From assembly GCA_964500045.1 (NCBI GenBank), contig CAZCNG010000003.1, forward strand, positions 1-33,718: DNA of 33,718 nt, given 5' to 3'. The position numbers and the translations under genes were made by a program. This document shows, one piece after another, positions 9,383 through 30,832 of this stretch. Position 1 is the first letter of the stretch. Each line of letters starts with the position of its first letter. Source of the DNA: an uncultured Methanomassiliicoccaceae archaeon. GTDB lineage: Archaea; Thermoplasmatota; Thermoplasmata; Methanomassiliicoccales; UBA472. The notes below the pieces were generated by a model. The model did not search any database, was not told the origin of the DNA, and saw nothing but the letters and a program-made list of their open reading frames with translations.

Positions 9383-10381
9383 GTGCGTACGTCGACCATT
9401 TGGGCATTGTTGTTGGTTGCCCTCCTCCTCCCATCGATGACCTCTTTGGTCGGAAGTGCAGAGGGCGAAAAGGCCGCTCCCGCGGCCAACCTCCAGGCGC
9501 CTGAGGTCATCTACCCCAATGAGATGAAGGTCGGTATCTACGCGCTCTCGGTCTCCAATTTCAACTTCGCTGCCGGCACGTACAACATGGACATGTACAT
9601 CACCTTCGGATGGGCGAATCATAGCATAGATCGGCCCCACTTCGAGGTCATGAACGGCTGGCCTGCCTACTCGAGCGCCATCGAGCTGATCGATCAGAAC
9701 AAGACCGGCGAGTTCTGGACCATGCAATACCGCGCTCGCTTGAGCCTCTTCGTCACGCCAAACTACCAATCCTACCCGTTCGATGATGAGACCCTCAAGG
9801 TCATCATCGAAGAAGGGAACTACTCGCTTGACCAGGTGGTCTACAGTTGGTGGCCCGAGCAGAGCGGCGTCGACAGCATGTTCAGTCTCACTGGCTGGAA
9901 GGTGAGCGGTTTCCAGAACAGTACTGAATTCAAACAATACCCCGATGGGGGAGCGTTCGCTCGCCTTTCCGTCGGAGTGCTCATGGTGAGGGACTCCTCC
10001 ACCGGTGTCATCCAATCCCTGCTGCCGCCGTTGATCTTCTGCATCGTCAGCGGGCTTGCTTTCCTCTTCACCGAGAACAAGGATGGAACCATCGCCCTGC
10101 GTCTCGGTCTTGGTACCAGCATGATCATCACTGCGGTCATGTTCTACTTCAGCCAGATGAGCACTTTGCCTCCAGCGAACCAGATCAAGCTGTTGGACAT
10201 CTACATGCTCAGCGTCTATGTCTTCTTGGCCTTGTCCTTGGTGGTCACTGCCCTCATCTATCACAACGCCGCTCGCCTTAAGCGCCCTGAGAGGATCCCA
10301 CGACTCAACCAGGCCGGCTTCATTTCTAGCATCGGGTTATCCCTTGGTTTGTTCATCATTCTGCTGATGATCAGCAGTTGA
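9383..10381 (+). CDS. prokaryotic pentameric ligand-gated ion channel (Cys-loop receptor family homologue)
   Basis: GTG start. Signal peptide MRTSTIWALLLVALLLPSMTSLVGSAEG is followed by a beta-rich ectodomain of about 190 aa (VGIYALSVSNFNFAAGTYNMDMYITFGW). The loop equivalent to the Cys-loop reads SYPFDDETLKVIIEE. Four TM helices follow: M1 LLPPLIFCIVSGLAFLF, M2 LRLGLGTSMIITAVMFYF, M3 LLDIYMLSVYVFLALSLVVTALIY, a short M3-M4 loop, and M4. Confidence 0.8.
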   Translation: MRTSTIWALLLVALLLPSMTSLVGSAEGEKAAPAANLQAPEVIYPNEMKVGIYALSVSNFNFAAGTYNMDMYITFGWANHSIDRPHFEVMNGWPAYSSAIELIDQNKTGEFWTMQYRARLSLFVTPNYQSYPFDDETLKVIIEEGNYSLDQVVYSWWPEQSGVDSMFSLTGWKVSGFQNSTEFKQYPDGGAFARLSVGVLMVRDSSTGVIQSLLPPLIFCIVSGLAFLFTENKDGTIALRLGLGTSMIITAVMFYFSQMSTLPPANQIKLLDIYMLSVYVFLALSLVVTALIYHNAARLKRPERIPRLNQAGFISSIGLSLGLFIILLMISS

Positions 10382-10545: not shown

Positions 10546-10629
10546 ATGTCTCGTCGTTCAGTGCGCGCTTTGTCTGCAGTATTGGTGGTGTTCCTTGGGC
10601 TATCTTTGCTCCCGTTGCCTGCTCAGGCT
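10546..10629 (+). other. Sec-type signal peptide of the giant membrane protein
   Basis: MSRRSVRALSAVLVVFLGLSLLPLPAQA has a basic n-region, a hydrophobic core and an A-Q-A cleavage motif. Confidence 0.7.
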
Positions 10630-13600
10630 GCCGACCCGACCGTCTTCTTCGCCGTCTCGCCCAACAGCATCAGCATGCCTCAGGGAGGGGGATTCAATAT
10701 CTCTGTGGTCATCTCCAGCGGTGGCGTGAACGTCCCTGGCGGCAGTTTCATCGTCAACTATGATCACTCGCTCTTTGCCATCGCCACCTATGCTCCCGTC
10801 GCTCCATGGAACGTCACTCTGGCCAACCCGGCCACCGGCAACTTCTCCTTCTCTCTCTTGCCTGGAGGCGTTTCGCCAGACTCCGGGCCCATCGTCGCCC
10901 TGTATTTCAAACAGGTATTGGGCACCACTCTGATCACCAGCCGGGTCAACGTGCAGGACCCCATCATCAACTCCATGACGGCACTAAGGCCTGCCAGCGT
11001 CGACGAGGCGCATTTTGCTGCGGCCATAAACGTCGAGGTGCCAGTGGACCCCACCGTCTTCTTCGCCGTCTCGCCCAACAGCATTACCATAGCAAATGGA
11101 AACGGATTCCTCCTAACGGTGCTCATCTCCCGCGGCGGTGTGAACATCTCGGGCGGCAGTTTCATCGTCAACTATGATCACTCGCTCTTCGCCATCGCCA
11201 CCTATGCTCCCGCCGCTCCATGGAACGTCACTCTGACGAACCCCGCCACCGGCAACTTCTCCTTCTCCCTTGCATCTAGGAACGCCTCCTCGGACTCCGG
11301 TCCCATCGTCGCCATCAATTTCAAGCAGATCTCCGGCACCACCTTCTCCAACAGCAAGGCGAACGTGCAGGACCCAGCCATCCGCTCCGCGGCGGCGGAC
11401 CGGCTGGCCAGCATCGAAGAGGACCGATACAGCGCGACCATCCGCACGGAAGGGAGCTTCCCCCTCTGGATCATCCCGTTGGTCGCCGTTCTGGTGGCCG
11501 CTCCGGTCATATGGCATTACTCGCGCCAGCGGCGCCTGAAGCGGACCGATCAGGATCGCAAGAAGGACGATGACAAGGACAAGAAACGCCAGGACAAAGA
11601 GGTCACCTATTCGTCCACCTTGCTGCGCAAGGAGGACCTGGTGGCATTAGATTTCCAATTCTACAATTTCAAGTTGGACCGCAGCATTCCACCGGCCAAG
11701 CTGGTAAGAGGAAATCCGACGGCCCCGGCCTTCATGGCCGTGACCTTCCAGGGACAGAACATCGCGGAACGGGCCTATTTCAAGGTCAATGAGAAGGTGC
11801 CGGTCCAGAACGACAAGGATCCGGACAAGGGCCAGGGGGACACCGACGAACCTATCCCGCCGCCGGTGCCGGCGCTGCTGGCCGGTCCGACCAGACTGGT
11901 CTTCCGCATTCCCGCCTCCGTGATGAGCATCCCCTACGACATCGAATCGCTGCTCAACTGGAGCCAGTACGATCTGTGCGTGGTGCCGAACGCGGTGCCC
12001 GCCAACCCGACCGTGCTGGATACGATGAATCCTTCGGCCATTCGCGCTCCCGATGAGAAGGAGACCGGCATCGAGGTGCCCTATCGTCTCATCCTCTCGC
12101 CGAGCCGCCTGGGCGGTTGGGCGCACAGCCCCAGGCCGGTCGAGCACGATGGCTGGACGGAACTGTGGCACACCCGTTTGGGCGTGAAGCGCCATGAAGG
12201 TGCCGGGTTCGTCATCGACGAAGAGGATGCATCTGAACGCATCGTCAGGGCCGTGTACTCTCCCGACTACCGCGCCTCCGATCCGATCAATCCCAACGTC
12301 ATGATGCCGTTCCGCACCTCGCTAACTCCGAGGGATAGGCATGAGATCGTCCGGTTGAGCTCCGATCCCGCGCTGGCATCCTCTTCAGACACGGGCGAAC
12401 ACGGGACGATGCCCACCGAGTCGACCTTCAAGGGACCCAACCTGGTCTCCGACAAGGGCGGCATGGTGCTGGTGGCCACGGTCAAAATGGATAAGACCAT
12501 GGCCAAGGGGAATGCCATGGCCGACAAGAAGCCGGACACTGTGGCGGCGGCCAACGCCTCTCTGGCGCATTCCAAGGCGCCCCCGCCGGTCCAGGTCAAC
12601 CGCCTCATGCTGTCGACGCTGGGAGCATGGCTTGACTCAAGGGGCACCTGGTCTCCGCCCAACGACCTCGCCGTGGAGGAATGGACGCACCGCGCCACCC
12701 AAGGCCGCGACCACTATGTCAAGGTGGTCTACAAGGGATTCCTGTTTCCGACCGGCCATCGTGCCTCGCTGGTCAAAGTGACCGAGAGGCGCTTCGAACG
12801 CAAGAAGGGCCAGATCACCAGTCAAGGGGCGGGAAGCTTCATCGCCTATCTGCGCCAGAGGATGTACATCGTCGTTCTGGAACACGACAAGGCCTACGAT
12901 ACGAATCGCGCCAACCAGGGCCGCGCTTTCCCCTTCAGCAAGGTGAACGTGGTCACCGAGGTGACCCCGGATATCGATTCGCCGGAGAATTCGGGCGTCG
13001 GTAGCCTGGGTATTCAAGCTTTCTTCCCGCGCGTCAACGGCAAGGAGTTCATGTTCCGCCTGCGCTCGACCGACGTCGAAGGCAGTGGTCAGGAATTCGA
13101 GATGCCCCTCGTGTTCGTGATGAACAACATCGCCCACAATGCCACCTTGATGAATGATCTCTTCGACCAGTATCCGAAAGAGACGGATAGGAGGACCGCG
13201 GACCTCCACGGGCAGAAGACCGCCTATGCCGCTTCAGCGAAGGCGGGCGATACCACCTTTGAAACCTCCTTCCTGTACTTCGGGGCGGAGTCGACGCCTT
13301 CAACGGGCAAAGCGAAGCCTGCTTATCTGCCTGCGTTGACGCAGTTCGACGTCAACGTACAGAGTATGACCGCCATCCTGGGCCGCAAGGCCGATGCCCG
13401 GCTCACCTTCGACCCCACCTTCCTCAGTGGAGGTTTCGGAGGTGCGACCAATCAGGGCGAGGTCTTCGCCAAGATGATCGATGGTGCCAACCTCAAACTC
13501 GAGTTCCCCGGTGATAAGGCCGGCGGCCTGGCCAAGCCGGACATGGCGGTGACCGGGTTGTCGCGCAGCCAGGGAGCTGTCGCCGGCGCCCTGGACAAGG

Positions 13601-14763
13601 TGAGCCAAGGGTCCTTCGATCCCATGGATTACTTCGGTGCGGTCATGTCGGCCAAGGTGCTGGGCATACCGCTCAGTAGCATCATCGCGGTCGCAGGGCT
13701 GGAATGCATGCCCTCCTACGTTGTCGAGAACATAGGCACCTCTCCCGGAGGGATACCGAAACAGGTCAAGACGACCATGGTATGGATCCCGCAGCTTCGA
13801 TCGAGCGATCCCGCCATCTTCGTCAATAAGAGGGGTTCGACGGATGCCAGCATGAGCATCACCGTCACCATAGTCAAGGATGCGGGCAGCACCCCACCCA
13901 CCATGGACGTGGTCGGCATCATGAAGGATTTCGAGATCCACCTGCTGCCACCGGTGTTCACCTTCCTGGCGATCCCCTTCAAGAAGATGAGCTTCGAGTC
14001 GCACCCCGGCCAGAAGATGGTCTTCGATGTGGAGATGGACGCCATCACCTTTGCCGGGCCGCTCTCCTTCCTCAATGCGCTCAAGGACATCATCCCGCTG
14101 AATGGATTCGACCCGCCCGGGCTGGACGTGACGGCGGAGGGGGTCACCGCCTCCTTCTCTCTCGCCATCCCCAGCATCGGCTTCGGCGTCTTCTCCATCC
14201 AGAACATCAATCTTTCCGCCAGTCTGTGCCTTCCCTTCGGCGGCGACCCCATCCGTCTGCGTCTCGCTTTCTGTGAGCGGCACAACCCCTTCCTCCTGAC
14301 GGTGAGCATCTTTGGCGGCGGCGGCTTCTTCGCCATGAACCTCGGGCCTGATGGTGTCGAGCTCATCGAAGGGTCGTTGGAGTTCGGCGGTTGCGTCTCC
14401 ATCAACTTAGGTGTGGCCAGCGGGGGCATCTACGTCATGGCCGGCGTCTACTTCAAGATGGAGATGGTCGGCGGCGACAGCACGCTGCAGCTCACCGGCT
14501 ATCTGCGGGCCGGTGGCGCGCTGGAAGTGCTGGGAATCATCACCATCTCCATGGAGTTCTACATGGGGATCAACTATCAGCCTTCGCCGAAGCGCCTCTG
14601 GGGTGAAGCCTCGGTGACGGTGGAGATCGAGGTGGCCTTCTTCAGCAAGAGCGTATCGCTCACCATGGAAAGGGAGTTCGCCAGCTCCCCACCGCCCTCC
14701 TTCCGGGATGTGGTGCCGGAGATCAAGGATTGGGTCGACTACGGCGAAGCGTTCGGAGGTTGA
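10546..14763 (+). CDS. giant type-I membrane protein of unknown function: signal peptide, 2 cohesin-like modules, TM helix, about 1050-aa uncharacterised C-terminal region
   Basis: Uninterrupted ORF. I take the ATG at 10546 (MSRRSVRALSAVLVVFLGLSLLPLPAQA/ADP) rather than the TTG at 10378. No enzymatic motif recognised; conserved-looking blocks are listed under findings. Confidence 0.85.
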   Translation: MSRRSVRALSAVLVVFLGLSLLPLPAQAADPTVFFAVSPNSISMPQGGGFNISVVISSGGVNVPGGSFIVNYDHSLFAIATYAPVAPWNVTLANPATGNFSFSLLPGGVSPDSGPIVALYFKQVLGTTLITSRVNVQDPIINSMTALRPASVDEAHFAAAINVEVPVDPTVFFAVSPNSITIANGNGFLLTVLISRGGVNISGGSFIVNYDHSLFAIATYAPAAPWNVTLTNPATGNFSFSLASRNASSDSGPIVAINFKQISGTTFSNSKANVQDPAIRSAAADRLASIEEDRYSATIRTEGSFPLWIIPLVAVLVAAPVIWHYSRQRRLKRTDQDRKKDDDKDKKRQDKEVTYSSTLLRKEDLVALDFQFYNFKLDRSIPPAKLVRGNPTAPAFMAVTFQGQNIAERAYFKVNEKVPVQNDKDPDKGQGDTDEPIPPPVPALLAGPTRLVFRIPASVMSIPYDIESLLNWSQYDLCVVPNAVPANPTVLDTMNPSAIRAPDEKETGIEVPYRLILSPSRLGGWAHSPRPVEHDGWTELWHTRLGVKRHEGAGFVIDEEDASERIVRAVYSPDYRASDPINPNVMMPFRTSLTPRDRHEIVRLSSDPALASSSDTGEHGTMPTESTFKGPNLVSDKGGMVLVATVKMDKTMAKGNAMADKKPDTVAAANASLAHSKAPPPVQVNRLMLSTLGAWLDSRGTWSPPNDLAVEEWTHRATQGRDHYVKVVYKGFLFPTGHRASLVKVTERRFERKKGQITSQGAGSFIAYLRQRMYIVVLEHDKAYDTNRANQGRAFPFSKVNVVTEVTPDIDSPENSGVGSLGIQAFFPRVNGKEFMFRLRSTDVEGSGQEFEMPLVFVMNNIAHNATLMNDLFDQYPKETDRRTADLHGQKTAYAASAKAGDTTFETSFLYFGAESTPSTGKAKPAYLPALTQFDVNVQSMTAILGRKADARLTFDPTFLSGGFGGATNQGEVFAKMIDGANLKLEFPGDKAGGLAKPDMAVTGLSRSQGAVAGALDKVSQGSFDPMDYFGAVMSAKVLGIPLSSIIAVAGLECMPSYVVENIGTSPGGIPKQVKTTMVWIPQLRSSDPAIFVNKRGSTDASMSITVTIVKDAGSTPPTMDVVGIMKDFEIHLLPPVFTFLAIPFKKMSFESHPGQKMVFDVEMDAITFAGPLSFLNALKDIIPLNGFDPPGLDVTAEGVTASFSLAIPSIGFGVFSIQNINLSASLCLPFGGDPIRLRLAFCERHNPFLLTVSIFGGGGFFAMNLGPDGVELIEGSLEFGGCVSINLGVASGGIYVMAGVYFKMEMVGGDSTLQLTGYLRAGGALEVLGIITISMEFYMGINYQPSPKRLWGEASVTVEIEVAFFSKSVSLTMEREFASSPPPSFRDVVPEIKDWVDYGEAFGG
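10630..11457 (+). repeat. in-frame tandem duplication, 2 x 414 bp (2 x 138 aa), each copy a cohesin-like beta-sandwich module
   Basis: The offset is exactly 414 nt. 10641-10670 matches 11055-11084 (cgtcttcttcgccgtctcgcccaacagcat). 10738-10857 versus 11152-11271 is about 94% identical by hand alignment (ggcggcagtttcatcgtcaactatgatcactcgctctt...). The flanks are much more diverged. Confidence 0.9.
11458..11520 (+). other. single transmembrane helix (stop-transfer anchor) of the giant protein
   Basis: FPLWIIPLVAVLVAAPVIWHY is followed directly by SRQRRLKRTDQDRKKDDDKDKKRQDKE. By the positive-inside rule the following region is cytoplasmic. Confidence 0.7.
14755..14759 (+). promoter_or_regulatory. 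Shine-Dalgarno-like GGAGG upstream of the second giant gene
   Basis: ggagg lies 11 nt upstream of the ATG at 14771, inside the last codons of the upstream gene (stop 14761-14763). Confidence 0.5.
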
Positions 14764-14770
14764 GATTCCT

Positions 14771-17700
14771 ATGCAAGAGGTCAAGGTCATGTGGACCGCC
14801 CTGCCCCAGGGCGTGGTCGAGAAGGACGGCAAGAAGAAGGCACGGGTCTCAGCGTTCGTCAGCATCCGATTGCGCACCGACCAGGGCGACACCCTGGGCG
14901 TTTTCCCTGAGTTCCTCAATTGGCCGAAGCAGCTGGACGGGATGAAGTTCATCGTGGATTTCGGCGGTAAGAAGCGCGAGGCGCAGGTGGAGAAGCAATG
15001 GGACGCCGCCCTCTGGGAAGGCATGTTCCACAAGGACACCTACCTGGAGCCGTTCGTCTACGACGACCTGTCCAATAATATCATTCACTCGTATCCGGTT
15101 GGATTGGTCAGCCTATTCATCGCCGGCAACTACCTCAATCTGGCCGTCAACTCGGCGAACGAACTGCCCAAGTTCGAAGCGCTGCGGCAGGAGAACTCCT
15201 TCGGCAAGCTCACCTTCAAAAGGGGCGAACGCGAGGAGTTGCGCAAGCTGCTGGACCAGCATCAGGCCAGGGACAAAGCCCTCTCGGTGAACGTCCTGCC
15301 GGCGGGCAAGAAGATCGAGGCCGCCTTCATGCAGACCAGCACCTTCCATGAACCGAAGGTCGCCAAGCCAGTGCCGCTTCCGAAGTATCCGGAGGACAAG
15401 CTCATCTTCGAAAAGATGGTGGACTTCCACCAGATGCTCTCCTCCCTGGCCAACTACCCGGAGCTGATGAAGCGCCTGGGCCTGCTGGTGGAGATGTACT
15501 TTGATCCGGATGAAGTGCCTGAATCATATCCGCAGGCTCCGCTTTCCCTGGCCTTCGAATCGCCGCAGTTCCAGGCGCGCGACTACTGTCCGCGCACCGC
15601 CTACATCTATGACCAGCGACGCCTCCTGCCCTCGCCTAGATCGCAGGGAGATTATGATTGGGGCTTCCTGCGCATGGAGAAGCCGGCCGAGTATCCCGTG
15701 CTGCAGTTCGATGTGGACGGCGCCGCCATCAAGGCGCTCAACTTCGCCCAGGATATGAAGGCGCAGGACGACAAGAAGTCGCTGGATACCCCCAAGGAAG
15801 GCGGAGTGCCCTTCCTCCGCTCCGCCGGCTTCTCGGTGGCGCGCACCGACCGCGCGGTCAAGTTGCACAAAGCCTTCACCGTCTCGAAGGTTCATGAGGA
15901 CGAATTGAAGCAGCAGAAACCGACCCTGCTCTTCGCCGAGGACGTGGCCCGGGGCGTTCGCTATGACGTCCTGGACCAGAGCGTGGGTCGCTTCCAGTCC
16001 TTGTGCTGGAGGAGCGGCACCTATCGCTACATCGATGAGAAGGAGGGGGAGAAGCTCATCGCCGAGCAGGTAGTGGATGAGGCCTGGGTGCAGACCGGAG
16101 CCACTTCCACACCGGACCCGAACATACCGCAGGCGCAGAAGGACCTCTTCGTACACGAGTCTCTCTTCAACTGGAGGGGCTGGAGCCTCAGCGTCCCTCG
16201 TCCTGGCCGACCGATCGACAAGGACGACAACGCCTCGGATGTGGAACAGATACCCGCCACCCAGCTCAAGCTGAAGACCGAGTTCCTGCCGGTGAAGGGA
16301 ACCCTGCCCCGTTTGAGATATGGGCACCGCTATTCGTTCCGTGGACGCATGGCGGACCTGGGCGGCTATGGTCCTCAATTGGATGACAACGATGCGTCGC
16401 ATGCCACCATGGCGCTGAAATATCTGCGCTTCGAGCCCATACCGCCGCCGCCCCTGCTCCTGAAGGAGGAGCTGGACCTGGATGAACGGCCGGCCGAGGA
16501 CATCGGCCGTCTGGTGATCCGATCCTATAACGACGACGTCAAGAAAGACGACCATGATAGCAAGGAAACGGCGGAGCGTCATGTGGCGCCGCCACGCATC
16601 GGGCAATTGGAGGCGGAACAGGCCGGCATGTTCGACGAAGCGACGGGAATGAGGGTGGACGCGGGCATCTACAAGATGCTCTGCGAACGGGACGTCGCCC
16701 ACTTCCAAGAGGCCAAGTCCGGCGACCCGCTATGCAAGAGCGATGAGTGTCGCGTGCCCTATCTTCCCGACCCATTCGTTCTGGGGGCTGCCCTGCAGGG
16801 GCTGCCCACTGGCTCGGCCAATCCGGGGGGAAGCCCCTATCAGGTGCACTGGAAATTATCGTCGCAGGGCGAATGGAAGGACTTCGGCAAGCCGGAGCAC
16901 TGGCCGGAACTGCTGCCTTTCCGCATCCGTTTGGAGGAGGGCGACAAGGACCCGTCCTGGGACGACAGTGGCCGCGTTCTGACGGTCTACCTGCAGAAGG
17001 CCGAGCGCGTTCGCTTCAAATTGTCCAGCTATCTGTCAAAGGAAAGACTGGAGCAGATGGGCCTGTGGAACTGGGTGGAGATCTTCAAGGAGTTGGGAGG
17101 AAAGCTGGATGAGGACCAGTTCCAACACCTGCGTGACAATGCGCTGAAGGGTAAGAACTGGCTGCTGACTCCCTTCCGTTGGGTGGAGCTGGTGCATGCG
17201 GTGCAGCAGCCTCTCGGCAGGCCAGACATCGCAGCGCTCTTCCCCCGCCGCGACCGCGGCCATACCTACGCCGACCTCAATGGGGCGGTCACCGTGCATG
17301 GCCCCAGCTCTGGAAAACTGGAAATGATGGCCCAGTGGGAGGAAAGACATGATGATCCCAGTGATCTGAAGAACGATCCGGTCAAGGACCGTCGCGGCGG
17401 GTATGTGATGGCCTTCGATCATGATCTGGAACCGAAGGACCAGACCTACAGTTTCATGATGGATTATAGTCGCCGGCATCATTTCGGCGATACCATCTAC
17501 CGCCATGTGCGCTACCGGGCCGTGGCCACGACGCGCTTCAAAGAGTACCTCTCCAAGCTGGTGCGCGAAGACCCGAAGTCCGATTTCACCCGGGTCAGCC
17601 AGGACGTGGAGCTGGACATTCCCAGCTCGGCGCGTCCCGCAGTACCGCGCATAGTATATGCCCTGCCGATCTACAAATGGTCGCCCTCGGTGCACACCCC

Positions 17701-18610
17701 CGTGGGCGGCGTGAGCAAGAGGACCGGCAAGGCGCTGCGCATCTACCTGCAGCGGCCTTGGTTCTCCTCCGGCGACGGCGAGAAGCTGGGCGTGGTGCTC
17801 TATCCTGGTTCCCTGCCGGCGGACGGGGAGGCGCTGGACCGCATCAAGCCCTACGTGACCATGGTCGGGCAGGACCCCCTGTGGGGTACTCATGCCACCC
17901 CCTCGAACCTCACCCTGGTCGATTTCAAGAACCGGCTCCCGGAGAGCGCATCGGGATTGAAATTGTCCGAAATGGACGATGTCACCGTCGACGTGGCCGC
18001 GTTCGAACCAGGCTACGACCAGGAAAGGGGGTTGTGGTACGCCGACATAGAGATCGAAACGGGCGCTTCCTACACGCCCTTCATCCGCCTCGCGCTGGTC
18101 CGCTACCAGCCGCAATCCGTGCCGGGGGTGGAGATATCGTCCGTGATGTTGGCCGATTTTGCCCAGCCACAGCCTGACCGTACCATGAGCGTCGTGCACG
18201 CCCCGGGTCTGGTCACGGTGACCGTGTCCGGCGAATCCTACCACTCGCGGCGCTTCGCCGAAGGAACGGCCCCGGACCAGGGCCACAGCAAGTTGGAGCT
18301 GTCGGTCGAGAAGTTCGAACCGAGCATCGGCACCGACCTGGGCTGGGTACCTGACCCGGATGCGAAAGTCAGCGAGGTCCTTGGCATCGTACCGGGGGCC
18401 TTGATGAGCGGGACGGTCACGCTGCCTCTGCCGAAGGTGCCCAAGGAAGGCGAGAAGCCTGCGCCGCCGCCCCGGCGTCGTGTCGTGGTGCGGGAGTACG
18501 AGATCATCACCCGCGACCGCCTGAGCACCGGTCCGGAGTCGACCATCCAGACAAGCACCCCGTGGGTGGAGGGACGCCGCTTGGTGTACACGGACATGAT
18601 GGAGCTCTGA
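14771..18610 (+). CDS. giant soluble protein of unknown function (about 1279 aa), translationally coupled partner of the upstream gene
   Basis: ATG at 14771 (MQEVKVMWTALPQG). No signal peptide or TM helix is visible, and no catalytic motif recognised. The ORF is uninterrupted to the TGA at 18608-18610. Confidence 0.85.
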   Translation: MQEVKVMWTALPQGVVEKDGKKKARVSAFVSIRLRTDQGDTLGVFPEFLNWPKQLDGMKFIVDFGGKKREAQVEKQWDAALWEGMFHKDTYLEPFVYDDLSNNIIHSYPVGLVSLFIAGNYLNLAVNSANELPKFEALRQENSFGKLTFKRGEREELRKLLDQHQARDKALSVNVLPAGKKIEAAFMQTSTFHEPKVAKPVPLPKYPEDKLIFEKMVDFHQMLSSLANYPELMKRLGLLVEMYFDPDEVPESYPQAPLSLAFESPQFQARDYCPRTAYIYDQRRLLPSPRSQGDYDWGFLRMEKPAEYPVLQFDVDGAAIKALNFAQDMKAQDDKKSLDTPKEGGVPFLRSAGFSVARTDRAVKLHKAFTVSKVHEDELKQQKPTLLFAEDVARGVRYDVLDQSVGRFQSLCWRSGTYRYIDEKEGEKLIAEQVVDEAWVQTGATSTPDPNIPQAQKDLFVHESLFNWRGWSLSVPRPGRPIDKDDNASDVEQIPATQLKLKTEFLPVKGTLPRLRYGHRYSFRGRMADLGGYGPQLDDNDASHATMALKYLRFEPIPPPPLLLKEELDLDERPAEDIGRLVIRSYNDDVKKDDHDSKETAERHVAPPRIGQLEAEQAGMFDEATGMRVDAGIYKMLCERDVAHFQEAKSGDPLCKSDECRVPYLPDPFVLGAALQGLPTGSANPGGSPYQVHWKLSSQGEWKDFGKPEHWPELLPFRIRLEEGDKDPSWDDSGRVLTVYLQKAERVRFKLSSYLSKERLEQMGLWNWVEIFKELGGKLDEDQFQHLRDNALKGKNWLLTPFRWVELVHAVQQPLGRPDIAALFPRRDRGHTYADLNGAVTVHGPSSGKLEMMAQWEERHDDPSDLKNDPVKDRRGGYVMAFDHDLEPKDQTYSFMMDYSRRHHFGDTIYRHVRYRAVATTRFKEYLSKLVREDPKSDFTRVSQDVELDIPSSARPAVPRIVYALPIYKWSPSVHTPVGGVSKRTGKALRIYLQRPWFSSGDGEKLGVVLYPGSLPADGEALDRIKPYVTMVGQDPLWGTHATPSNLTLVDFKNRLPESASGLKLSEMDDVTVDVAAFEPGYDQERGLWYADIEIETGASYTPFIRLALVRYQPQSVPGVEISSVMLADFAQPQPDRTMSVVHAPGLVTVTVSGESYHSRRFAEGTAPDQGHSKLELSVEKFEPSIGTDLGWVPDPDAKVSEVLGIVPGALMSGTVTLPLPKVPKEGEKPAPPPRRRVVVREYEIITRDRLSTGPESTIQTSTPWVEGRRLVYTDMMEL

Positions 18611-22859: not shown

Positions 22860-24149
22860 ATGGACTCAGTGGAGGAACTAGCGCGCCGGGCCAAGGACGC
22901 ATCCTACCGGCTGCAGGCCATGCCGGCCACGAAGAGGAATGAGGCGCTGGAGGCCATCGCCAAGGCGATAGCGGCTCAACGCAAGCATCTGCTCGATGCC
23001 AATCTTGAGGACGTGCGTCGTTCCGAGGCCGAAGGCCTTTCCAAGGTGCTGATCAAGCGTCTGCGCTTTGACGAGGAGAAGGTCGAAGAGTCAGTACGCA
23101 TGCTGCATTCCCTCATGGGTCAGGAAGATCCTCTCAACAAGGTCCTGGCCCGCAGCGAGCTCGACGAAGGCCTCATTCTGGAGAAGGTCACCTGCCCGAT
23201 CGGCGTCATGGGCGTCATCTTCGAAGCGCGCCCCGAAGCGCTGGTGCAGATATCCTCTCTCTGCCTGAAGTCTGGAAATGCCGTGCTGCTCAAGGGCGGT
23301 TCCGAAGCTAGATCTACGAATGAGGCTCTAGCCCGCTGCATCAGTGAGGCCATCATCCAGGTCGATGCGGCGTTCGAGGGCGCGGTCCAGCTCCTCTCCA
23401 CCCGGGAAGAGGTGCACGCGCTCCTGGCCCAGGACCGGTACGTCGATCTCATCATACCGCGCGGTTCGAACGAACTGGTGCGGTCGATCCAATCCTCCAC
23501 GCGCATACCAGTGCTCGGTCATGCGGCCGGCATCTGCCACACCTTCGTGGACAAGGGGGCCGATCTGGACATGGCCATCAAGGTCTGTTTCGACGCCAAG
23601 GTGCAGTATCCCGCCGTCTGCAACGCCATGGAAACGTTGCTAGTACACTCGGCCATCGCCAAGGAATTCCTGCCCCGCATGGCGAAGCATTACGCTGACG
23701 CCAAGGTGCAACTGCGCGGCGATGTCCGTACCCGGGAGATAGTGCCCATGCAGGAGGCCTGCGCGGCTGACTGGGATGCGGAATACAACGACCTCATACT
23801 CTCGATCATGGTCATAGACTCGCTCCCGGAAGCGGTGAGGTTCATCAATCTGCACGGGTCGCATCACACCGACGCGATCATCACCAAGGACACCGTGGCG
23901 GCGCAGTTCTTCATGGACAATGTGGACAGCAGCTCGGTGATGTGGAACTGTTCCACGCGCTTCGCTGACGGCTATCGATACGGTCTGGGTGCTGAGGTGG
24001 GCATCTCCACCAACAAGACGCATGCGCGCGGGCCGGTCGGATTGGAAGGCTTGATCATCTACAAATGGAAGCTCGTCGGCCACGGCCACGTGGTCGCCGA
24101 TTACGCAGGCAAGAATGCCAAGCGATACACGCACAGGAAGATGCTATGA
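22860..24149 (+). CDS. proA: gamma-glutamyl phosphate reductase
   Basis: 429 aa with a typical ProA N-terminus (ARRAKDASYRLQAMPATKRNEALEAIAKAI). Aldehyde-dehydrogenase-fold blocks include VMGVIFEARPEALVQI, NAVLLKGGSEA and the catalytic CNAMETLLVH. Confidence 0.92.
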   Translation: MDSVEELARRAKDASYRLQAMPATKRNEALEAIAKAIAAQRKHLLDANLEDVRRSEAEGLSKVLIKRLRFDEEKVEESVRMLHSLMGQEDPLNKVLARSELDEGLILEKVTCPIGVMGVIFEARPEALVQISSLCLKSGNAVLLKGGSEARSTNEALARCISEAIIQVDAAFEGAVQLLSTREEVHALLAQDRYVDLIIPRGSNELVRSIQSSTRIPVLGHAAGICHTFVDKGADLDMAIKVCFDAKVQYPAVCNAMETLLVHSAIAKEFLPRMAKHYADAKVQLRGDVRTREIVPMQEACAADWDAEYNDLILSIMVIDSLPEAVRFINLHGSHHTDAIITKDTVAAQFFMDNVDSSSVMWNCSTRFADGYRYGLGAEVGISTNKTHARGPVGLEGLIIYKWKLVGHGHVVADYAGKNAKRYTHRKML

Positions 24150-25255
24150 GAGACATTTCCCCCAAGCGCGTCGTGGTCAAGATCGGCACCAACACCATCT
24201 GCCGCGAGGACGGCACGGTCGATACGGACTACTTACAAGGGGTGGCCCGGCAGGTAACCTCCCTGCGCGAGGCGGGCCTGGAGATCATCGTCGTCTCTTC
24301 CGGTGCCATCGGCTCTGGGATGTACGAGCTCGGCCTCAAGGAGAGGCCGCGCGAAGTCTCCGTCAAGCAGGCGTGCGCCGCCGTGGGTCAGGCCATCCTG
24401 ATGATGGAATGGAGGGCTGCCTTCTCCAAGGAAGGTTTGATCGTTGGGCAGGTACTGCTCACCTATGGTGCGTTCTCGGACCGCATCCGCTATCTCAATT
24501 TGCGCAAGGCGATGGAAGAGATGTTCCGGCTCGGAGTCGTTCCGATCGTCAACGAGAATGACGTGATCTCGACCGATGAGATCGAGGACATCTTTGGCGA
24601 CAATGACAAGTTGTCGGCGCTGGTGGCCAGCAAGGCTGACGCAGACCTGCTCATCCTTCTCACCGACGTGGACGGCCTCTACGACCGCAATCCGAGCGTC
24701 GACAAGGACGCGGTCCTCATTCCCACCGTGGACGAGATCACCAAGGATATCGAGAGGATCGCTGGCGGCAACAAGAACGACCGCTCCGTGGGTGGCATGC
24801 GCACCAAGATCACCGCCGCCAGGATCTCCATGGAGTCGGGCTGCAATATGATCATCGCCAACGGCCGCACCGAGGACGTCATCCTCAAGGCGGCGCGTGG
24901 AGCGGAGATAGGCACGCTCTTCACTGCCCGCTACCTCTACGACAACCGCGAGCGCTGGATACTGTTCGCCGCACCGAAGGGGAAGATAGTCATTGACGCC
25001 GGCGCCGAGGAAGCGCTGAAGAAGGGCCGCAGCCTCCTACCCTGTGGCGTCAAAGACGTGGAAGGGAAGTTCAAAGAGGGGGACATAGTCCGCATCAACA
25101 GCTTCGCCAAAGGGGTGGTCAACTTCTCGTCGGCCGCATTGGCGGAGTTGCTGGAAGAGTGCCGTGCCGAGAAGGTGAAGCATCACGGCAAGGTCGGCAA
25201 CGATAAGGTGGTGGTCGGCCACGAGAACATCGTGCTCCTGCAGGCGGACAATTGA
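24146..25255 (+). CDS. proB: glutamate 5-kinase with C-terminal PUA domain
   Basis: The ATG at 24146 overlaps the proA stop (ATGA). RVVVKIGTNTI...IIVVSSGAIGSG...VPIVNENDVISTDEI..FGDNDKLSALVA is followed by a PUA-like GKIVIDAGAEEALKKGRSLLPCGV. Confidence 0.92.
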   Translation: MRDISPKRVVVKIGTNTICREDGTVDTDYLQGVARQVTSLREAGLEIIVVSSGAIGSGMYELGLKERPREVSVKQACAAVGQAILMMEWRAAFSKEGLIVGQVLLTYGAFSDRIRYLNLRKAMEEMFRLGVVPIVNENDVISTDEIEDIFGDNDKLSALVASKADADLLILLTDVDGLYDRNPSVDKDAVLIPTVDEITKDIERIAGGNKNDRSVGGMRTKITAARISMESGCNMIIANGRTEDVILKAARGAEIGTLFTARYLYDNRERWILFAAPKGKIVIDAGAEEALKKGRSLLPCGVKDVEGKFKEGDIVRINSFAKGVVNFSSAALAELLEECRAEKVKHHGKVGNDKVVVGHENIVLLQADN

Positions 25256-28023: not shown

Positions 28024-28027
28024 ATTG

Positions 28028-30832
28028 ATGGTGAATGTCCGGGCCCGCCAGGGCGAGATCCAGGTACAGGTGTCGATCGAGGCTGGCTGCTTCATTCTCG
28101 AAGCATTACGGGGCACACCGCTGGAGGTGCGTTCCGGCTGCAACGGCAACGGCTCGTGCGGCATTTGCCAGGTGAGAGTTGTTCAAGGTCACATGTCGCC
28201 GCCGAGCCTGCCGGAGATGCTGCAGATCCCCAAGGCCGAATTGGACAAGGGACGCAGACTTGCCTGCCAGGCGCGCATACTGGGCGACGTGGAGCTGGAG
28301 CTCATTAGCGGACGGGAGACCGTGGGATGGAAGCTGCTACCGCGGGAAGAGGACCGGTTGGACCTGACCCGCAAGACCGCGTTGGGGCGCAGCTACACCT
28401 CCGCCCTCTGCATCGACATCGGCACCTCCAGGCTGCGCCTGAGCCTTACGGACCTCGGCTCGCACGCTCGTCTGGCCGGTGCCAGTGGGCCTAACCCTCT
28501 GCCGGGGAGCGACGTGATCTCACGCCTCGACGCGGCCTCGCTAGGGGAAGGCGAAGAGGAATCATACCAGCTGCGACAGGCGATCGCAGAAGGCCTATCC
28601 TTCTTGCACGTCGTGGCTGGTGTGGACCTGAATGCTGTAAGAAAGATCATTGTGGTGGGCAACAGTGCCATGCAGTCCCTGTTGCGGGGAACGGGCCACG
28701 CCCTCATCCTCGACCCCGCCTCCTGGTCAAAGCGGGCGCCGCGAGATACGATCCTTCTCCCCGATTTCGGAAGGGACATCGGACTCGGAGATGTCGAAGC
28801 GGAAGTGATCCCCCCGCTGGGCGGCTTCATCGGTTCTGACCTCCTTGCAGGGATGCTGGCCTGCGATCTTGATGGCGGAGAAACGTCGCTCCTGGTGGAT
28901 TTCGGCGCCAATACCGAGATCGCCCTATGGACCGGCGAGAAGATGATGGCCGTATCCGTCGCCGGCGGCCCGGCCTTTGAAGGGTGGGGCATTGGTTGCG
29001 GCATGGCGGCCTATCCTGGCGCGGTCTTCCGCGTGCAGGCGCTGGGCGACGGAAAGGTCGACCTGGGCATCATCGGGGGCGGTCCTCCCTCGGGGCTGTG
29101 CGGCTCGGGGCTGGTGGATACCTTGGCCCTGTTCGTGGGGCGCGGCATGGTCGATGAGGTCGGTCGTATCCAAGGGGAGACGGCCATCATCGATCCGAAC
29201 TGGGGGTTGCATCTCACCAAGGCGGATATCGACGTGCTACAAAGGGCCAAGGCCGCCGTGGCCGCATCGATCATGTACCTGCTGCAGAAGGCGGGGATCG
29301 GGGCGGATAGGATCGTCAAGGTGTACGTGGCCGGGACCTTGGGTCGGTATCTCGACATTCCCAATGCGGTCTACATAGGTCTGCTGCCCCCCTTGCCGGT
29401 CAGCCGCTTCGAGCAGATCGAGAACGCGGCGCTATTGGGCGCCGAACTGTGTGCCCTCGACGACAAGAAGAGGGCGCGCCTGGAGGCCTGGGGCGCAAGC
29501 ACCGAGATGCACAACCTGGCCGCCGCCCCGGGATTCGAGGACCTCTTCATCGATTCATTACATCTGCGTCCGTGGCCGGGGCGGACGATCTACTCTTCGT
29601 TCCGGGACCTCGGGCGTCCCGAAGAGAATTTCGTGCGGGCGGCGCAGTACATTTCCGATATGCGGCTGGAGGGTGACAACCAGGAGAAGCTGGGAATGAT
29701 GATCGCGCGTCTCTTCGACGCGGACCTGATCGCCTTCGTCGAACACCGCGATGACATTCTGGTCCTGCGCGAGATCGACAACCGTTCTCTTGCCTGCCGT
29801 TCCTGTCCGCATGAGGAGCTCATCCTCCGGGAGGCCAGAGTGGTAATGGAGAGCGGATTCGCGTCCACCATAGGGCCGACGCCGGACCGGGTCTCCTCCA
29901 TCGCGCTGCTGCCGATGCAGGTGGAGGAGCGTACCGTGGTCATGGTCATCGGCCACGATATCCCGGAGCAGATGCCCCGGCAGCGGTTGGACGTCTATCT
30001 GGCACTCTCCAAGAGCGCGGGGGGCATCCTCACCCGCCTGGAACAGGAGCGGGAACTGATCGGTCACCGCACCCGGCTATCCAAGCTCGTTGAGGAACGC
30101 ACCATGCAGGTCGAGGAGGTCAATGCCAAGTTGCGCCAGGAGGTGGAGATGCGCGCCCGTGACGAAGAGGCGATCCGCCTCGCGAACAATAAGCTGAACC
30201 TCCTCTCCAGCATGACAAGGCACGACATCATCAATCAGGTCACGGCGGTGCTTGGATACGTGCACCTCATGGAAACGAAAGGGTTACCACCGGAGAAGAT
30301 GATGCGCTACCTGGGCAAGATAGAGAGCATCACCGCTACGATCCAGAGGCTCATCGAATTCACGCGCGACTACCAGGACCTGGGCGTGCACGGGCCGACC
30401 TGGCAGCAGATCGATGAGGACTTCTGGAGGGCGGCGGCGTCCTTCCGCGATAGCGGCCTCACCTTCACCTCCGGCACCGAGGGGTTGGAGATCTTCTCGG
30501 ACCAGATGCTCAACAAGGTCTTCCATAACCTGATCGACAACACCATTCGCCACGGTGGGGGAGCGCGGCAGGCGAGCCTTTCCTATGTGATGGACGGAGA
30601 AGAGCTCCTGCTCCACTACCGCGATGACGGGGTAGGTATCTCCCCGGACCAGAAGGCATTGATCTTCGAAAGGGGCTTCGGCAAGAACACGGGCCTGGGA
30701 CTGTTCCTGGTGCGCGAGATCCTCTCCATCACTGGCATCCGCATCGTTGAGGTCGGAACGCCCGGGAACGGCGCCGATTTTGCCATGCATGTGCCAAAAG
30801 GCAGCTTCCGGCTGCGCTCGGGGAAGGGATGA
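28028..30832 (+). CDS. fusion protein: [2Fe-2S] ferredoxin + RACo/RamA-type ASKHA corrinoid reductive-activase domain (COG3894/DUF4445-like) + GAF-like domain + histidine kinase
   Basis: N-terminus: SGCNGNGSCGICQV...LACQA, a plant-type 2Fe-2S Cys pattern. Activase blocks: LCIDIGTSRLR, GSDVISRL, VVGNSAMQSLL, VDFGANTEIALW, VAGGPAFEGWGIGCGMAAYPGAVF and GLCGSGLVD. After about aa 520 comes a sensor-like region and coiled coil. The kinase has H-box LLSSMTRHDIINQV (His codon 30221-30223), N-box FHNLIDNTIRHGG, G1 DDGVGI and G2 GLGLFLVREI. Confidence 0.85.
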   Translation: MVNVRARQGEIQVQVSIEAGCFILEALRGTPLEVRSGCNGNGSCGICQVRVVQGHMSPPSLPEMLQIPKAELDKGRRLACQARILGDVELELISGRETVGWKLLPREEDRLDLTRKTALGRSYTSALCIDIGTSRLRLSLTDLGSHARLAGASGPNPLPGSDVISRLDAASLGEGEEESYQLRQAIAEGLSFLHVVAGVDLNAVRKIIVVGNSAMQSLLRGTGHALILDPASWSKRAPRDTILLPDFGRDIGLGDVEAEVIPPLGGFIGSDLLAGMLACDLDGGETSLLVDFGANTEIALWTGEKMMAVSVAGGPAFEGWGIGCGMAAYPGAVFRVQALGDGKVDLGIIGGGPPSGLCGSGLVDTLALFVGRGMVDEVGRIQGETAIIDPNWGLHLTKADIDVLQRAKAAVAASIMYLLQKAGIGADRIVKVYVAGTLGRYLDIPNAVYIGLLPPLPVSRFEQIENAALLGAELCALDDKKRARLEAWGASTEMHNLAAAPGFEDLFIDSLHLRPWPGRTIYSSFRDLGRPEENFVRAAQYISDMRLEGDNQEKLGMMIARLFDADLIAFVEHRDDILVLREIDNRSLACRSCPHEELILREARVVMESGFASTIGPTPDRVSSIALLPMQVEERTVVMVIGHDIPEQMPRQRLDVYLALSKSAGGILTRLEQERELIGHRTRLSKLVEERTMQVEEVNAKLRQEVEMRARDEEAIRLANNKLNLLSSMTRHDIINQVTAVLGYVHLMETKGLPPEKMMRYLGKIESITATIQRLIEFTRDYQDLGVHGPTWQQIDEDFWRAAASFRDSGLTFTSGTEGLEIFSDQMLNKVFHNLIDNTIRHGGGARQASLSYVMDGEELLLHYRDDGVGISPDQKALIFERGFGKNTGLGLFLVREILSITGIRIVEVGTPGNGADFAMHVPKGSFRLRSGKG

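Follow-up and report, generated by a model that had tools for sequence, protein, structure and literature searches.

A strictly paired, undescribed family of giant two-gene loci in archaea and bacteria

What kind of system is encoded by two adjacent giant genes that resemble nothing described so far? The question is raised by a stretch of 33,718 nucleotides from an uncultured Methanomassiliicoccaceae archaeon (contig CAZCNG010000003.1, assembly GCA_964500045.1), hereafter the window, in which two intact + strand open reading frames (ORFs), genes A and B, span 8065 of 33718 bases (24%). Gene A (10546-14763, +) runs from an ATG to a stop codon at 14761-14763 and translates into 1405 amino acids (aa), and gene B (14771-18610, +), which also starts with ATG, encodes a 1279-aa protein with neither a signal peptide nor a transmembrane helix. 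The junction between them (14756-14770, +) consists of a GGAGG sequence (14756-14760), 10 nt from the ATG of gene B, and a 7-nt spacer (14764-14770). An earlier reading of the letters alone (the original prediction) had described this arrangement, and its coordinates were borne out, as were the spacing, the GGAGG and the share of the window; it had further proposed that the two proteins belong to no recognisable family and form a large structural or mechanical assembly anchored in the membrane through protein A. The longest ORF version of gene A begins with a TTG at 10378; we took the ATG at 10546 as the start because the A protein of a syntenic relative opens with a similar signal peptide. 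For gene B, an alternative in-frame ATG at 14708 would give a 1300-aa protein, and position 14771 was preferred since B homologues begin 5-8 residues before a WTALP motif.

A conserved pair that fits no known family

To place the two proteins we compared them with collections of families, structures and systems. Neither A nor B has a match in Pfam, NCBIfam, PHROGs or PADLOC, and searches of PDB sequences with the single proteins and with family profiles returned nothing at E ≤ 1 and no local match. Walker A, HExxH, YD, CxxC, thioester and LPXTG motifs are absent from both proteins, which thus carry no enzyme or NTPase signature. The claim that the pair has no recognisable family or function therefore stands, the signatures reported as lacking are indeed missing, and all ten sequence blocks quoted in support of it are present and fall on stretches that the family alignments show to be conserved.

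The predicted folds are confident and rich in β-structure. An AlphaFold2 (AF2) model of A residues 391-1405, built from the family alignment (predicted local distance difference test score, pLDDT, 79.6; predicted template-modelling score, pTM, 0.67), is almost all β, and the model of B residues 1-1200 (pLDDT 86.2, pTM 0.71) consists of β-sandwich domains with helical inserts. Foldseek searches of the PDB with the A model listed SlpA, LptD, porins, P47, microsomal triglyceride transfer protein (MTP) and ApoB, with E ≥ 5e-4 and template-modelling scores (TM-scores) ≤ 0.3. The P47 (TULIP) match has an E-value of 5.5e-4 with 392 of 409 target residues aligned and that to MTP an E-value of 8e-3, both at a TM-score of about 0.1. 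Against the viral structures of BFVD the A model gave no match below E 1e-3; the top weak matches are tail-fibre and host-specificity proteins. The B model retrieved A2ML1, C3b, C4b, integrin legs, FN3 receptors and transglutaminases at TM-scores of about 0.1. On these models we regard the resemblances of A and B as generic β-sheet and β-sandwich likeness. Neither profiles, which gave no match, nor Foldseek, whose matches stayed at TM ≤ 0.3, linked the proteins over nearly their full length to a characterised family, and we conclude that the pair fits no known family or solved structure and is undescribed. The structural or mechanical assembly of the original prediction, a conjecture, is neither borne out nor contradicted by any structure or profile match. 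Shared ancestry of A and B was considered and rejected (hhalign probability 0.1%).

The best Foldseek matches of B are to the α-2-macroglobulin/complement thioester family (7q1y, 6ehg, 4lnv), with which it shares a long chain of β-sandwiches (about 1040 aligned columns, E 1.5e-6). However, the TM-score is 0.09, B has neither the CxEQ thioester motif nor a thioester domain, and Pfam MG/A2M domains were found neither in B nor in 59 relatives; since integrin legs, FN3 chains and transglutaminases score alike, this resemblance too is generic. Two-partner secretion (TpsB/TpsA) is not indicated either: there are no POTRA, Bac_surface_Ag or two-partner-secretion Pfam matches, and B is signal-less.

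Both families are large. Among the candidates scored, A has at least 1591 relatives (clusters at 90% identity) at 35-57% identity, its core being present in at least 586 GTDB species. For B, a single-sequence query run exhaustively with phmmer counted 4481 representatives (50% clustering, E ≤ 1e-3), 1892 of them at E ≤ 1e-30, and repeating the word-index search with the B alignment brought in no further sequences. That the A core and B would occur as adjacent pairs across genomes was confirmed, far beyond chance: of 80 species-level loci, 78 have B immediately 3′ of A and on its strand, the median gap between the two genes being 28 nt. The same order is seen at loci L001-L004, L085, L087 and L089, and the pairing holds when the search is started from the B side. 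The only two exceptions (L017, 13946-15664, a Chlorobiota metagenome-assembled genome, MAG; L042, 14264-15982, an Armatimonadota MAG), both with an A protein of the long twin-arginine translocation (Tat) type described below, carry a 572-aa Peptidase_M3 gene after A in place of B, with no B downstream of A within about 10 kb (L042) or about 2.5 kb (L017) of sequence. Clustering of 766 flanking ORFs revealed no third conserved gene, the best flank cluster being present at 8 of 83 loci. A fusion of A and B of the Rosetta-stone kind was also rejected: the 2227-aa candidate, P0016, consists of B and a subtilase-like C-terminus. Because the pair is strictly conserved and autonomous, it offers a clean genetic unit for study.

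The pair is spread sporadically over more than 12 phyla in both prokaryotic domains. Hosts include Acidobacteriota, Aminicenantes, Ignavibacteria and Chlorobiota, Armatimonadota, Verrucomicrobiota, Chloroflexota, Actinomycetota, Bacillota, Pseudomonadota, Cyanobium and archaeal MAGs, with members in Bacillus, Paenibacillus and Streptomyces. Copies on plasmids, megaplasmids included, were found in the Bacillus cereus group, Rhizobium and Streptomyces, all labelled hypothetical, and tblastn against 50,697 phage records found no phage copy. This distribution suggests that the module is horizontally spread and accessory in character. Contigs assigned to a Methanothrix MAG (L021) and a Syntrophorhabdus MAG (L022) are 99.6% identical across 7.2 kb, reflecting either a binning error or a very recent transfer, and the taxonomic labels of short MAG contigs with the pair are therefore unsafe in some cases. 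The 33.7-kb window itself is clearly archaeal, and the database entry closest to its pair is labelled Methanomassiliicoccales archaeon.

A tractable carrier is Cupriavidus metallidurans CH34, whose chromid (NC_007974.2, 1316743-1320900; L086) encodes an A copy, Rmet_4688, labelled hypothetical, with a B-like ORF downstream. Rmet_4688 is located 168 nt downstream of the extracytoplasmic function (ECF) sigma/anti-sigma pair rpoQ-rsqA, beside the gold- and copper-induced gig operon and at the exact edge of CMGI-D′, a genomic island that strain BS1 lacks. A functional link with rpoQ-rsqA was considered and rejected, the adjacency stemming from the island boundary and being probably accidental. Searches of the literature by locus tag and accession, and of CH34 transcriptome supplements, yielded no functional or expression data on the family.

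Protein anatomy and variable targeting

All features of the two proteins described below lie on the + strand. Protein A of the window opens with a predicted Sec-type signal peptide (MSRRSVRALSAVLVVFLGLSLLPLPAQA, 10546-10629), whose hydrophobic peak at aa 8-26 is followed by an AQA-A site. Its N-terminus, MSRRSVRAL and then a strongly hydrophobic h-region, does not qualify it as a Tat substrate: the RR is not kept in the clade, and relatives carry KR, KK or RR at this position, so that there is no conserved Tat motif. Two cohesin-like repeats follow (aa 30-167, 10633-11046, and aa 168-304, 11047-11457), recognised as a tandem duplication and by homology to the N-terminal region of protein P0038. 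They have a 414-nt period and 81% nucleotide identity (10633-10932 versus 11047-11346), are about 138 aa each and also align as protein. The repeats align to the P0038 region at E 2e-13, and P0038, P0040 and P0042 match Pfam Cohesin PF00963 (best E 7.6e-8); the window's own repeats fall below Pfam significance for cohesin. The A protein of L001, a relative with the pair in the same chromosomal context, is 137 aa shorter and fits a single repeat copy, which suggests that the duplication is recent in this lineage.

Next come a single predicted transmembrane helix (aa 305-326, 11458-11523; Kyte-Doolittle peak 2.28) and, read directly from the sequence, a K/R/D-rich linker (SRQRRLKRTDQDRKKDDDKDKKRQDK..., 11524-11619). 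All archaeal-type relatives share this module order, each with a K/R-rich stretch after the helix. Like cohesin-bearing surface scaffolds, the window's A thus has a signal peptide, two cohesin-like modules and then a membrane anchor; unlike them, its cohesin part is clade-specific and a conserved core of about 1050 aa follows the helix, and no dockerin partner for the modules was identified.

The core (aa 359-1405, 11620-14760) is the part that defines the family, being the region shared with the at least 1591 homologues. It contains a variable, disordered insert (aa 615-675, 12388-12570; pLDDT 31-35) with the lowest conservation in the core. The most conserved block (12703-12795), in a 50-aa bin with a mean identity of 0.66 across 64 sequences, has invariant to near-invariant R, D, G, H, T, E and R positions, and the two best-conserved regions of the core are the GRDHYV... 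block and the C-terminal 190 residues. In the AF2 model the C-terminal region (aa 1190-1380, 14113-14685; FGGGGFF, LEFGG, GVASGG) forms a Gly-rich amphipathic β-meander of at least 7 consecutive strands, each of 10-18 residues, joined by turns of 2-4 residues. Every strand is amphipathic, the domain is 14% Gly and, at a mean identity of 0.50-0.64, ranks with the best-conserved regions of the protein; past the sheet comes a helical tail. The meander is also the region of A to which the weak Foldseek resemblance to β-barrel proteins applies.

Across the family the A core lacks a transmembrane helix, and the N-terminus ahead of it is modular. In the short Tat type a [ST]RRxFL motif lies 75-89 aa ahead of the core; in the long Tat type the motif is followed in some proteins by an AxA site (e.g. 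MSRREMLGLAGVAAIGLSPVARA/V) and then by a domain of about 400 aa. Other N-termini are the bare type, with no signal, the archaeal signal-cohesin-transmembrane type and a rare TTR-like type, the accessory domains of A thus being cohesin and TTR-like. Of 118 A homologues, 79 have a [ST]RRxFL motif followed by a mildly hydrophobic region, as do the A proteins of about 38 of the 80 species loci, and TIGR01409 scored borderline-positive on 3 of the 10 N-termini compared with it. From sequence, Tat signals are predicted for about half of bacterial A proteins. The signal-cohesin-transmembrane N-terminus is an add-on of a small archaeal clade only, so that anchoring through A, as put forward in the original prediction, holds for the window's protein but not for the family, and that interpretation is supported in part.

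The domain of about 400 aa in long-type A (e.g. P0051 aa 60-560) forms a conserved family of its own, without a Pfam match, and has the consensus ...RVAFxLxGxERWxIDxxxFAGxPxL...PGTxLPAD...PFERWLxG...

Protein B begins with a conserved, long N-terminal β-hairpin (VMWTALPQG...ARVSAFVSIRL, 14777-14875), with strands at residues 3-18 and 21-35 in the AF2 model. By a strict pattern the hairpin motif lies within about 10 residues of the Met in 139 of 175 B proteins; the remaining full-length proteins have a variant motif and a few entries are N-terminal fragments. Twelve Arg are invariant in the family, as are D, E and H residues; no Cys is. No B protein examined across the family has a signal peptide. 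Longer B proteins of some lineages nevertheless carry domains typical of extracytoplasmic proteins: PG_binding_1 (two proteins), pAdhesive_15 with fn3, Big_3_5 (three proteins), Laminin_G_3, ASH/HYDIN Ig and a subtilase-like domain (Peptidase_S8). Where extracellular-type domains are clearest, in two B proteins (PG_binding_1 and adhesive), the partner is an A protein of the bare type.

Where the pair may act

The targeting signals of A and the accessory domains of the pair point to the cell envelope or the exterior. Our favoured, though still tentative, reading is that A and B make up a self-contained envelope-associated complex in which targeting and membrane contact fall to A, with B serving as a multi-sandwich binding arm. 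The complex would act at or outside the cell envelope, its destination being set by the variable N-terminus of A: a Tat signal in about half of bacteria, and a Sec signal, cohesin-like modules and a transmembrane anchor in the archaeal clade. The Gly-rich β-meander is a candidate surface for contact with lipids or membranes. B would bind A physically, perhaps via its invariant N-terminal hairpin, and may be co-exported with it by Tat hitch-hiking, while its extra modules (peptidoglycan-binding, lectin, Ig-like and adhesive) would vary by lineage and bind surfaces. The complex would then bind cell surfaces or polymers, possibly adhering to or attacking other cells, with adhesion or attack as its presumed biological role.

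The arrangement recalls Tat-exported heteromeric complexes with a signal-less ‘hitch-hiker’ subunit, such as the small and large subunits of hydrogenases and DmsAB. As in these, A has a Tat signal in about half of bacteria and is tightly coupled to a signal-less partner with extracytoplasmic-type domains. Unlike them, A and B have no cofactor-binding motifs and are far larger, and many A members, the window's included, have no Tat signal, the core in the window being predicted to be cytoplasmic.

The last point leads to the main problem. In the window the complex is predicted to be tethered to the cytoplasmic membrane with the cohesin-like modules outside, and the K/R-rich stretch after the helix, read with the positive-inside rule, would put the A core, and hence the signal-less B, on the cytoplasmic face. 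Tat-type A should be exported, whereas the archaeal and bare types predict a cytoplasmic core; this conflict, which the original prediction had missed, arises because the anchor places the A core and B in the cytoplasm here while bacterial relatives look exported. The predicted cytoplasmic location of the core and of B, in the window and in archaeal-type proteins generally, thus weighs against an envelope-associated complex, and so do several further points. About 40% of A proteins lack any signal. The pairing of extracellular-type B with signal-less A indicates that Tat hitch-hiking is not a general export route. A and B together (about 270 kDa) would exceed any Tat cargo size known to us, and no structural match indicates pore formation, adhesion or lipid binding, all Foldseek TM-scores being ≤ 0.3. 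In the literature, Rmet_4688 appears only as a ‘hyp’ gene flanking the gig-rpoQ-rsqA region and CMGI-D′.

An alternative is that the pair is a cytoplasmic, membrane-proximal effector, for example of a stress, defence or cell-death type, in which the β-meander of A perforates or remodels the producer's membrane from inside and releases B, whose wall- or surface-binding modules then act. The archaeal-type topology would put the A core and B inside the cell, the signal-less A proteins and all B proteins fit such a location, as do the bare-type partners of B proteins with PG_binding_1 or an adhesive domain, and endolysins with peptidoglycan-binding domains likewise have no signal peptides. The sporadic, horizontal-looking spread, plasmids included, is typical of defence and accessory modules. 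We consider such an effector unlikely, as canonical Tat-type signals occur on about half of bacterial A proteins and A and B have no nuclease, NTPase or sensor domains. The pair also has no PADLOC match as a known anti-phage system, and its flanks are not defence islands, the genes there being metabolic or unrelated. It is similarly doubtful that A and B are the two subunits of an enzyme with an unknown fold whose substrate is a polymer of the envelope or the cell exterior, be it polysaccharide, peptidoglycan or protein, with the β-sandwich domains and accessory modules binding this substrate and a lineage-dependent location. Such an enzyme would account for the invariant polar residues of A (E/H/T/R/D/K in ELWHTR, GRDHYV and GHRAS...TER) and for the invariant Arg, D, E and H of B. 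The accessory modules are typical of carbohydrate-active or wall-active enzymes, the cohesin-like modules recall cellulosome-type scaffolds, and A has both exported and non-exported variants, location differing between lineages in many hydrolases and redox enzymes as well. However, neither protein resembles any catalytic domain in sequence or structure, cofactor motifs are absent, the transglutaminase matches of B reflect a generic sandwich, and no Cys is invariant in that protein.

A lipid-binding or lipid-transfer complex that moves or extracts lipids at the membrane, the long twisted sheets of A enclosing a hydrophobic groove or cavity as in TULIP proteins, LptD and large lipid transfer proteins, is in our view improbable. 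The Foldseek matches of A to P47, LptD, MTP and ApoB, its strongly amphipathic, Gly-rich strands and the membrane tether of the window's protein are in keeping with it, but the matches have TM-scores of about 0.1 and probabilities of 0.1-0.5 and are equalled by those to porins and other barrels, the signal being that of a generic antiparallel sheet, and neither the need for B nor its surface-binding modules would be explained. The likeness of the C-terminal meander to large β-barrel and β-sheet proteins of membranes and lipids (SlpA 8ae1, LptD, porins, autotransporter barrels, P47) is offset by TM-scores ≤ 0.3, short turns on both sides and the helical tail past the sheet. An outer-membrane barrel assembled by the β-barrel assembly machinery (BAM) is incompatible with a family that occurs in monoderm bacteria and archaea and whose signals are Tat-type or absent. 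Very unlikely, finally, is a domesticated phage- or tailocin-like or Tc (ABC) toxin-like structural module, of receptor-binding or tail-fibre type and released by lysis. It would suit giant signal-less proteins with variable binding domains at the B C-terminus and the weak viral matches to tail-fibre and host-specificity proteins; with Tc toxins the pair shares adjacent giant genes, a sporadic, horizontally transferred distribution that includes plasmids, the frequent lack of a signal and variable binding modules. Yet there is no match among the phage records or in PHROGs, all viral Foldseek E-values exceed 1e-3, and no sheath, tube, baseplate, RHS or lysis genes lie nearby. A contractile injection or phage-tail module is likewise not indicated where neighbours are housekeeping genes and none is conserved. 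The domains of TcA, TcB and TcC (VRP1, TcA_TcB_BD), RHS/YD repeats and neuraminidase-like domains are lacking, there are two components rather than three, and no Tc structure is among the top 50 Foldseek matches listed for A or B. Tat signals, frequent in A, are not known to be used by such systems.

If the envelope-associated reading is taken to its limit, the pair would represent a new class of two-protein envelope machine in bacteria and archaea, with an all-β A that folds in the cytoplasm and is either exported by Tat carrying the 150-kDa B or tethered by a transmembrane helix, a novel Gly-rich meander that engages membranes and interchangeable B modules that choose the target surface. We regard this as speculative and rather improbable; were it true, A carrying B would be among the largest Tat cargoes known, and the pair would be an undescribed family of binary complexes that attack or adhere to cell surfaces.

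No defining feature of a family considered was clearly recognised in the A/B pair, which we assign to no known kind and regard as well-defined, widespread functional dark matter, formed by two large families found in more than a dozen phyla without a Pfam or NCBIfam model, a solved relative or a published function. Tractable carriers exist in C. metallidurans CH34, on plasmids of the Bacillus cereus group, in Streptomyces and in Bradyrhizobium. With the function known, thousands of very large ‘hypothetical’ genes would gain an annotation, new folds might come to light and it would be tested how signal-less giant proteins with wall-binding modules reach the envelope; the opposite predicted topologies of archaeal and Tat-type A are a concrete, testable puzzle.

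Genomic neighbourhood of the pair

The surroundings of the pair agree with the statement that it did not enter this lineage recently as a mobile insertion. The GC content of the pair (0.56-0.63) equals that of the flanks, a scan of 20 neighbouring ORFs turned up neither an integrase nor a transposase, and L001, a 58-kb contig, carries a 76%-identical pair in the same chromosomal context, from which we conclude that the pair is stable in this lineage. The flanking genes are of housekeeping and methanogen type: SulP, arginase and a proline-synthesis-like cluster, and further a corrinoid protein, an MtaA-like URO-D, RACo and DUF2117.

Several neighbours merit mention in their own right. The gene directly upstream of A (9383-10381, +), kept at the same position in L001, has a weak match, at E 3.4e-6 falling just short of the Pfam cut-off, to the membrane-spanning region of neurotransmitter-gated (pentameric ligand-gated) ion channels. 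A 935-aa ORF (28025-30832, +) combines a 2Fe-2S ferredoxin domain, the middle and C-terminal (ASKHA) parts of RACo, HisKA (a weak match, E 0.006, below Pfam's cut-off) and HATPase_c; this corrinoid-activase/sensor-kinase fusion looks unusual and adjoins the genes for a B12-binding protein and the MtaA-like URO-D. An aldehyde-dehydrogenase-type, proA-like ORF (22860-24149, +) and a proB-like ORF with amino-acid-kinase and PUA domains (24065-25255, +), which are followed by a pyrroline-5-carboxylate (P5C) reductase-like gene, overlap by 85 nt as listed, which probably reflects a later true start of the kinase gene.

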